Part shown: positions 3,001-6,000 of the stretch, one piece after another
Position numbering within the stretch: the first letter of the stretch is position 1
How the letters are laid out: every line of letters begins with the position of its first letter
IMG/VR virus record: IMGVR_UViG_2698536408_000006
Length of the DNA: 10,593 nt
DNA from: a virus
Lineage: Duplodnaviria > Heunggongvirae > Uroviricota > Caudoviricetes
Reading direction: 5' to 3' (one strand)
Position numbers: made by a program

Positions 3001-6000
3001 GTGCGCGTGAATGAATGGTTCAGCGCGTATGCGATGGCGGGCGTGGCTTACAGCCGTGTGTCGACCTTCTCCGGGGATTATCTCCGCGTAACTGACAACA
3101 AGGGGAAAACGCACGATGTGCTGACCGGAAGTGATGGCGGTCGCCACAGCAACACGTCTCTGGCGTGGGGGGCTGGCGTGCAGTTTAACCCGACCGAATC
3201 CGTGGCCATTGACCTTGCTTATGAAGGTTCCGGCAGTGGTGACTGGCGCACTGACGGTTTCATCGTGGGTGTCGGTTATAAGTTCTGATTAGCCAGGTAA
3301 CACAGTGTTATGACTGCCCGCTGGTTCAGGCGGGCTTTTTGTGGGGTGAATATGGCAGTAAAGATTTCAGGTGTACTGAAAGATGGGGCGGGTAAACCTG
3401 TCGTAAATTGTGCGATTGAACTGCGGGCCAGAAGAACCAGTCCGACCGTTGTGGCACACGTTGTTGCCACTTGCGTGACGGACAATAACGGTGCTTATGT
3501 GATTGAGGCTGAGCCGGGGTATTACGAGGTTGCGCTTCACTGTAACGGCTGGCAGCCAACCCGTGTCGGGGATATTGATGTGGCACCGACTGATGCACCG
3601 GGGACACTGAACGCGTTTCTGAATGCACCAAAGGATGGTGATTTACGTCCGGAGGTGATGAAGTGTCAGCGCCAGTGATATAAGACGGTAATTCGCCATT
3701 TGGATTGTCCGCTCCACCCAACATGTTGTTTCCTTAAGGTTCTCACACCAGAAAGGACATCAACATGCTGAGCAGAGAGGACTTTTACATGATAAAGCAA
3801 ATGCGCCAGCAGGGCGCGTACATCGTCGATATTGCGACTCAGATTGGTTGCTCTGAACGGACGGTCAGACGCTACCTCAAATACCCTGAACCGCCAGCCA
3901 GAAAGACNGTCTTTCTGGCTGGCGGTTCAGGGTATTTGAGGTAGCGTCTGACCGTAACAGCGGATGACGGCAGTGAGCGGCTGGTCAGCACGGCCCGGAC
4001 GACGGAAACCACTTACCGCTTCACACAACTGGCGCTGGGGAACTACAGGCTGACAGTCCGGGCAGTAAATGCGTGGGGGCAGCAGGGCGATCCGGCGTCG
4101 GTATCGTTCCGGATTGCCGCACCGGCAGCGCTGTCGCGGATTGAGCTGACGCCGGGCTATTTTCAGATAACCGCCACGCCGCATCTTGCGGTTTATGATC
4201 CGACGGTACAGTTTGAGTTCTGGTTCTCGGAAAAGCGGATTGCGGATATCAGGCAGGTTGAAACCACAGCACGCTATCTTGGCACGGCGCTGTACTGGAT
4301 AGCCGCCAGTATCAATATCAAACCGGGCCATGATTATTACTTTTATATCCGCAGTGTGAACACCGTTGGCAAATCGGCATTCGTGGAGGCTGTTGGTCAG
4401 CCGAGTGATGATGCATCCGGTTATCTGGATTTTTTCAAAGGCGAGATAGGGAAAACCCATCTGGCTCAGGAGCTGTGGACGCAGATTGATAACGGTCAGC
4501 TTGCGCCTGACCTGGCTGAAATCAGGACGTCCATTACGGATGTCAGCAATGAAATCACGCAGACCGTCAATAAGAAACTGGAAGACCAGAGTGCGGCAAT
4601 TCAGCAGATACAGAAGGTTCAGGTTGATACAAATAATAACCTGAACAGCATGTGGGCTGTGAAGCTGCAGCAGATGCAGGACGGACGCCTTTATATCGCG
4701 GGTATTGGTGCCGGTATTGAGAACACCCCTGACGGCATGCAGAGTCAGGTGCTGCTGGCGGCGGACAGGATTGCGATGGTTAATCCTGCGAATGGCAACA
4801 CAAAACCGATGTTTGTTGGTCAGGGCGATCAGATATTCATGAACGACGTGTTCCTGAAACGCCTGACGGCCCCCACCATTACCAGCGGTGGAAATCCATC
4901 GGCATTTTCCCTGACTCCGGACGGAAAGCTGACCGCTAAAAATGCGGATATCAGTGGCAGTGTGAATGCGAACGCCGGGACGCTCAACAATGTCACGGTA
5001 AATGAAAACTGTACGATTAAGGGCATGCTGGAGGCGACTCAGGTCAGAGGTGACTTCGTTAAAGCTGTATCCAAATCATTTCCGAAACAGGCTGGTACGT
5101 GGGGTAACACGGAAACACCAAACGGGACGGTTACAGTCACCATAAGCGATGATCATAACTTTGACCGCCAGATTATTATTCCGCCCATTATTTTTAACGG
5201 TATAGCGTATGACGATCCGGGGAGCGGAAATAACCCAGGAGGCACGCGATACACGGGTTATGGTTTTGAAGTTCGCAAAAACGGCGTATTAATCGCATCC
5301 AGAGAAACTAAAGGTGCCATTCCCGGTAGTTACAGTGCAGTTATTGATATGCCTAGTGGTGGTGGTAGCGTCACTCTGGAGTTTAAGATTTTCCAGAAAG
5401 GCAATCAGGGGGCAGGCAATATCACCGACTGTACGGTGATTGTGACCAAAAAAGCGGCTTCCGGCATCAGTATTCGTTGAAATATTTATAACCCCAATAA
5501 ATGGCGTCAGGAATGACGCCTTTTTTATTGCAGAAAAGCGAGAGGTAATTATGCGTAAAGTTTGTGCAGCCATTTTGTCCGCAGCCATTTGCCTGGCCGT
5601 ATCCGGTGCGCCTGCATGGGCGTCTGAACATCAGTCCACGCTGAGCGCGGGGTATCTTCATGCCCGGACCAACGTTCCCGGCAGTGATGATCTGAACGGG
5701 ATTAACGTGAAATACCGTTATGAGTTTACGGATACGCTGGGGCTGGTGACGTCATTCAGCTATGCAGGAGACAAGAATCGCCAGCTGACCCGTTACAGCG
5801 ATACCCGCTGGCATGAAGATTCCGTGCGTAACCGCTGGTTCAGCGTGATGGCGGGGCCGTCTGTGCGCGTGAATGAATGGTTCAGCGCGTATGCGATGGC
5901 GGGTGTGGCTTACAGCCGTGTGTCGACTTTTTCCGGGGATTATATCCGCGTAACTGACAATAAGGGGAAAACGCACGATGTGCTGACCGGAAGTGATGAC

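Follow-up and report, generated by a model that had tools for sequence, protein, structure and literature searches.

An IS21-interrupted side tail fibre allele in a decayed lambdoid prophage of Shigella sonnei

In the lambdoid phage Ur-lambda, the gpV/gpM junction at the tail tip is encircled by a collar of 12 copies of residues 1–91 of the side tail fibre protein gpStf; a flexible linker (residues 92–101) leads to a coiled-coil shaft that begins near residue 102 (PMC12617516). In Shigella, a recurrent pattern of insertion sequence (IS) insertion, gene inactivation, further IS hits and deletion has been described (PMC7373316), and the list of IS elements for S. sonnei 53G includes both IS21 and IS600 (Hawkey et al. 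2020, PMC7373316). We examined a viral scaffold of 10,593 nucleotides (hereafter the window) in which an initial annotation had marked positions 3352–3678 as a variant side tail fibre (Stf) N-terminal domain truncated at an IS21-family element. Our results indicate that this open reading frame is very probably an IS21-generated pseudogene remnant of a diverged stf allele in a decayed lambdoid prophage of S. sonnei.

Identity and surroundings of the fragment

An open reading frame is present at 3352–3678 on the plus strand of the window, with a product of 108 amino acids. Only residues 1–104 are native to the fibre gene; IS21 supplies the final four (CQRQ) together with the stop codon. The main features are the following.

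3352–3663, plus strand: native 5′ remnant of stf (codons 1–104), 100% identical to nt 1–312 of an intact 470-amino-acid allele and matching PF08400 and PDB 9E7M/9MGH
3660–3663, plus strand: IS21 target site GAAG, a single copy in the window, with a second copy flanking the right IS end in CP179997.1
3664–3907, plus strand: left end of IS21 (nt 1–244) with the terminal inverted repeat TGTCAGCGCC, placed by 100% identity to IS21 copies and by flank divergence
3765–3907, plus strand: first 47 codons of istA (helix-turn-helix region), where the assembly breaks off at 3907
6132–9215, plus strand: intact lambda-like Stf of 1027 amino acids (PF08400, Phage_fiber_2 and Collar domains) in a second, unlinked tail module, the comparator of the initial annotation

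In a gap-free BLASTP alignment of the fragment with the Stf N-terminus encoded from 6132, 52 of 104 residues are identical (63% positives, E = 8e-34). This alignment bears out the first 12 residues reported as common to the two proteins, and the peptide strings quoted in the initial annotation are correct. Its statement that they differ at most positions captures a real divergence and slightly overstates it, exactly half of the aligned residues being identical. The product matches the prophage tail fibre N-terminal family PF08400 with 126.4 bits (cutoff 26.6) over profile positions 1–104 of 134. A phmmer search of solved structures aligns residues 1–92 with residues 1–92 of a 94-residue chain named ‘tail fiber protein’ in 9E7M and 9MGH (E = 3.3e-22), which is the collar domain of Ur-lambda gpStf. 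The domain identity rests on these Pfam and solved-structure sequence matches, which we judged unambiguous. Homology to the lambda gpStf collar also makes the label of tail-attachment domain appropriate, and a collar domain related to lambda gpStfN would be expected to dock on the gpV/gpM junction and not on J (PMC12617516).

With the domain limits given in PMC12617516, the remnant covers the complete collar domain (about residues 1–91) plus the linker, and the IS21 break falls just past the collar domain, at the boundary between domain/linker and shaft. The proposal that IS21 inactivated a second stf allele whose N-terminal domain is diverged therefore stands, since both an intact allele and the reciprocal IS end were found (see below); the description of the domain itself as truncated does not, because the collar is complete. 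Gene order in the window and in complete genomes is M-L-K-I-J-lom-stf′, the position expected of a lambdoid Stf. A full-length fibre with shaft, C-terminal receptor-binding region and downstream accessory or chaperone gene is found only for the intact allele WP_046880233.1; the window copy is cut after codon 104. The window copy is a pseudogene of the PF08400 Stf family and not a functional member of it.

Two further features lie at the upstream edge of the fragment.

2689–3288, plus strand: lom (Ail/Lom outer-membrane protein), directly upstream of stf′ in the same degraded tail module
3243–3384, plus strand: block of 142 nt common to both tail modules, 97% identical to 6022–6163

The block holds the 3′ end of lom, a terminator-like hairpin (3316–3335) followed by a T run, a ribosome-binding site and the first 11 stf codons. 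The identical start of the two Stf proteins is explained by this block reaching into stf; beyond codon 11, similarity of the two genes falls sharply. The block is 97% identical although the modules are otherwise 50–88% diverged, which could reflect a conserved regulatory element or a recombination boundary. A promoter scan of 3150–3800 found no sigma-70-like site. The lom gene of the second module (5551–6033) is truncated, with 160 amino acids versus 199, apparently through loss of about 118 bp lying between short CTGGCG repeats. This truncation is real, as the same 160-amino-acid product is called in complete genomes (loci L015 and L017).

The IS21 junction and the uninterrupted gene

When window positions 2689–3907 were compared with complete E. 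coli genomes by megablast, lom and the fibre start were matched at up to 98.6% identity, and every match ended at 3663. Alignment with the intact allele is identical up to ...GGAGGTGATGAAG and diverges completely beyond it, where the uninterrupted gene past codon 104 reads ...CGCTTTGAGGAA. On the other side of this point, 3664–3907 is 100% identical to many elements annotated ‘IS21-like element IS21 family transposase’, and the upstream flanks of four IS21 copies diverge exactly at TGTCAGCGCC, corresponding to window position 3664. Break point and IS identity are thus read directly from the alignments, and the initial annotation of a truncation by an IS21-family element is exact: stf homology stops at 3663 and the IS terminus is at 3664. 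Bases 3664–3678 supply the last four codons of the open reading frame (CQRQ) and its stop.

The window shows IS21 only to nt 244, and the right IS end lies outside it because the assembly breaks. Full copies are 2130 bp long, with inverted repeats TGTCAGCGCC/TGTCAACGCC and a right end reading ...GGCGTTGACA, both ends having been set by flank divergence among the four copies. Their termini are 5′-TG...CA-3′, as in the IS21 family, and they carry the two genes istA (390 amino acids; rve and Mu-transpos_C_2) and then istB (265 amino acids; IstB_IS21). Two other IS21 copies are flanked by the 4-bp target duplications CATC and GTTA.

The initial annotation had proposed a search for the full-length relative of the fragment, and this relative was found. 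The intact allele encodes 470 amino acids (WP_046880233.1, ‘prophage tail fiber N-terminal domain-containing protein’, from invasive E. coli CFSAN029787), and a DUF4376 gene directly follows it. In the phage collection, no close full-length relative of the allele was detected; the best match was the phiP27 tail fibre (38.5% identity), and N-terminal matches to Stf of Stx phages reached about 55%. The weakness of these phage-collection matches means that the allele is known from prophages and not from sequenced phages. In CFSAN029787, the fibre and DUF4376 genes are followed closely, at the end of the prophage, by a frameshifted ipaH-type type III secretion system effector gene (locus L001, 8830–10472).

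The right end of IS21 followed by the remainder of this stf allele, which the initial annotation had suggested looking for elsewhere, was located in S. sonnei CP179997.1. Here the whole 2130-bp IS21 lies between stf nt 1–312 and nt 309–1413. The left junction reads ...GATGAAG / TGTCAGCG... and the right junction ...GTTGACA / GAAGCGCTTTGAGG..., while the intact gene across the insertion point reads ...GATGAAG / CGCTTTGAGG. GAAG is present on both sides of the intact element, a 4-bp target duplication observed at the insertion itself. The 363-amino-acid open reading frame downstream is annotated ‘phage tail protein [Shigella sonnei]’. This duplication is a genuine transposition signature, and the stf/IS21 junction is therefore not a chimera.

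Scaffold structure, conservation and later decay

The window, a draft scaffold, contains an N run (1329–1396) and one isolated N (3908). A 47-nt inverted repeat with 100% complementarity and a 1-nt spacer (3861–3907 and 3909–3955) marks the point where two prophages have been joined.

3908–3955, no strand assigned: assembly artefact, an N plus the exact reverse complement of 3861–3907, joined to the J of the other prophage through an 11-nt overlap

In CP023645.1, window positions 3945–10593 have a 100% identical counterpart near 1.27 Mb, and 1397–3907 a 99.8% identical one near 1.95 Mb. Both tail modules thus exist, separated by about 680 kb in that genome, and it was the assembly that placed them side by side in the window. 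The initial annotation was right in recognizing two distinct lambdoid tail modules. The J mosaic that it had cited in their support most likely arose in assembly as well. Across window 1–1328, J departs at 14 positions from the module-1 J found at each of the 11 complete-genome loci, and at all 14 it has the same base as the paralogous J of module 2. This pattern most likely reflects cross-talk between J paralogues in short-read assembly, which we favour over real gene conversion in this strain. The 68-N gap (1329–1396) is flanked by an 87-nt near-duplicate (1242–1328 versus 1397–1483, three mismatches), indicating that the contig ends overlap and that the gap is spurious. Inferences drawn from module adjacency or from the J mosaic in this chimeric scaffold should be discarded.

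The stf/IS21 junction itself is conserved. An exact-sequence look-up of the 108-amino-acid product recovered it from the complete genome CP010829.1 (ALZ55769.1, ‘hypothetical protein FORC11_1838 [Shigella sonnei]’) and from seven draft contigs, with contig-end partial forms on more than 1000 S. sonnei contigs. A look-up with the window Lom yielded ten more complete-genome loci, all with stf nt 1–312 followed directly by IS21 nt 1, so that the left junction is identical in 11 of 11 loci from complete S. sonnei genomes. Window 3352–3907 is identical to complete genomes. The junction was absent from 5,426 complete E. coli genomes, in which the best places covered only the lom–stf part up to 3663; it was missed there because the collection excludes Shigella. 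A 108-amino-acid cluster member from S. boydii does not share the IS junction, ending in ...KRFEE as a contig-end partial sequence.

Downstream of the junction, other S. sonnei genomes contain, in this order, IS21 nt 1–428, a 1264-bp IS600 (99.8% identical to annotated IS600), IS21 nt 424–1098, an inverted, partial IS600 (1177 bp), stf nt 746–1413 and the DUF4376 gene. IS21 nt 1099–2130 and stf nt 309–745 have been lost in most of these other genomes. Like the intact allele and the target duplication, conservation across genomes and the secondary rearrangement were observed directly. Two genomes depart further: in CP045526.1 the IS600/IS21 interior is deleted and IS21 nt 1–425 lies about 33 bp from stf nt 746, and in CP019689.1 the degraded module M-L-K-I-J-lom-stf′ occurs twice in tandem across an IS600. 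Upstream, the prophage carries a Q-like gene, IS elements and the 3′ end of the tape-measure gene, then M-L-K-I-J-lom, an order in which head genes are absent. Having lost these and most of its late operon, the prophage remnant cannot form particles.

We propose the following sequence of events. An S. sonnei lambdoid prophage carried a 470-amino-acid side tail fibre gene with a collar allele about 50% identical to that of lambda. IS21 (2130 bp, istA and istB) transposed between codons 104 and 105, duplicating the 4-bp target GAAG and cutting stf after the collar domain and linker, so that the shaft and receptor-binding part are no longer co-translated and the reading frame enters the IS for 15 nt before reaching a stop. 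In most S. sonnei lineages, IS600 entered IS21, and a second, inverted IS600 copy is associated with the loss of IS21 nt 1099–2130 and stf nt 309–745. The simple IS21 insertion of the CP179997.1 type was probably ancestral and the IS600 events secondary. With the prophage itself reduced to a remnant lacking head genes, no fibre can be made, and the stf remnant is presumably without function.

Alternative readings and comparison with known systems

No evidence contradicting the IS21-pseudogene reading was found, and three alternatives were weighed against it. The first, in which assembly created the junction and the organism carries an uninterrupted fibre gene, deserved attention in a window with a hairpin at 3908, an N run at 1329–1396 with its 87-nt overlap, and J cross-talk. 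We give this reading almost no credence: the identical junction recurs in 11 complete-genome S. sonnei loci and seven independent draft contigs, the break falls exactly at an IS terminus, and the reciprocal end with its 4-bp target duplication is present in CP179997.1. The initial annotation had named such a chimera as grounds for abandoning its claim, and these observations dispose of it. It had named likewise the case in which the fragment is a full short protein of a family unrelated to Stf. One genome annotation does call the open reading frame as a gene (‘hypothetical protein FORC11_1838’), yet codons 1–104 have 100% DNA identity to the start of the 470-amino-acid fibre gene, the product matches PF08400 and lambda gpStfN, and its last four residues and stop belong to IS21. 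A genuine stand-alone protein is thus scarcely conceivable.

A third possibility is that the remnant has been kept and expressed as a fibre-less collar decoy, occupying the Stf docking site of co-resident or superinfecting lambdoid tails and causing interference or modulation. The IS cut leaves a complete and potentially foldable collar domain with its linker, the ribosome-binding site and start codon are intact, and none of the S. sonnei genomes examined shows a change in the fragment, including those with further deletions downstream. However, S. sonnei is clonal, so this conservation is no signal of selection. A terminator-like hairpin lies just upstream, the prophage lacks head genes and most of the late operon, and cross-docking is doubtful given identities of just 50% for the collar and 56% for its gpM partner between this module and the other resident one. 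We consider a decoy highly improbable; if it did exist, it could alter the host range or adsorption of lambdoid phages induced from or infecting S. sonnei. We therefore retain the reading of the fragment as a pseudogene remnant. It is an ordinary IS21 pseudogene, to which public S. sonnei annotations already give the label of partial tail-fibre protein. Its relevance is mainly to annotation, as one more IS pseudogene in an IS-laden S. sonnei genome, within a prophage remnant incapable of forming particles.

Collar alleles themselves show a broader pattern. The 1027-amino-acid Stf of the second module returned no entry in an exact look-up, and the loci of its module were found through a Tfa look-up instead; in several complete genomes this Stf sits with Tfa in a complete tail module. 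Between the two modules, identity is 56% for gpM and 50% for the collar domain, and this similar degree of sequence divergence is consistent with two different tail lineages. A third collar allele is carried by the 471-amino-acid S. boydii protein WP_039066297.1, about 47% identical over residues 1–103. The shaft and C-terminal region of that protein are about 98% identical to those of the intact CFSAN029787 allele (L001:6664–8076), with a switch at about residue 104. The occurrence of different collar alleles on a nearly identical shaft indicates that the collar domain is exchangeable as a cassette. At least three collar alleles about 50% identical to one another thus occur on different or identical shafts, with a swap boundary near residue 104. 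The domain-swap boundary coincides with the IS21 insertion point. The cassette picture fits the recent Ur-lambda structure and may help engineers of lambdoid fibres.

The closest described relative is the lambda Stf. As in lambda, stf follows J and lom and encodes a PF08400 collar domain, and the intact allele shares the order of collar domain, alanine-rich shaft, C-terminal binding region and downstream accessory gene. The remnant differs in that its gene is broken after codon 104 and its domain shares only about 50% identity with the lambda type. The intact allele is also shorter, at 470 amino acids versus 774 in Ur-lambda and 1027 in the other Stf of the window; its C-terminal region differs, and it is followed by a DUF4376 protein and not by a Tfa (Caudo_TAP) chaperone.

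The outcome resembles the stf frameshift of lambda PaPa (orf401/orf314), in which a lambdoid stf is likewise inactivated, side fibres are absent and J-dependent functions are untouched. In lambda PaPa, however, the lesion is a 1-bp frameshift in a viable phage, whereas here an IS insertion and later deletions affect a prophage remnant without particles. The locus agrees with the IS-driven pseudogenisation described for Shigella (PMC7373316), sharing with IS21 the 2130-bp length, TG...CA termini, istA and istB, and 4-bp duplications. It does not differ from that process in kind, and represents one instance of it in a prophage gene instead of a metabolic gene.
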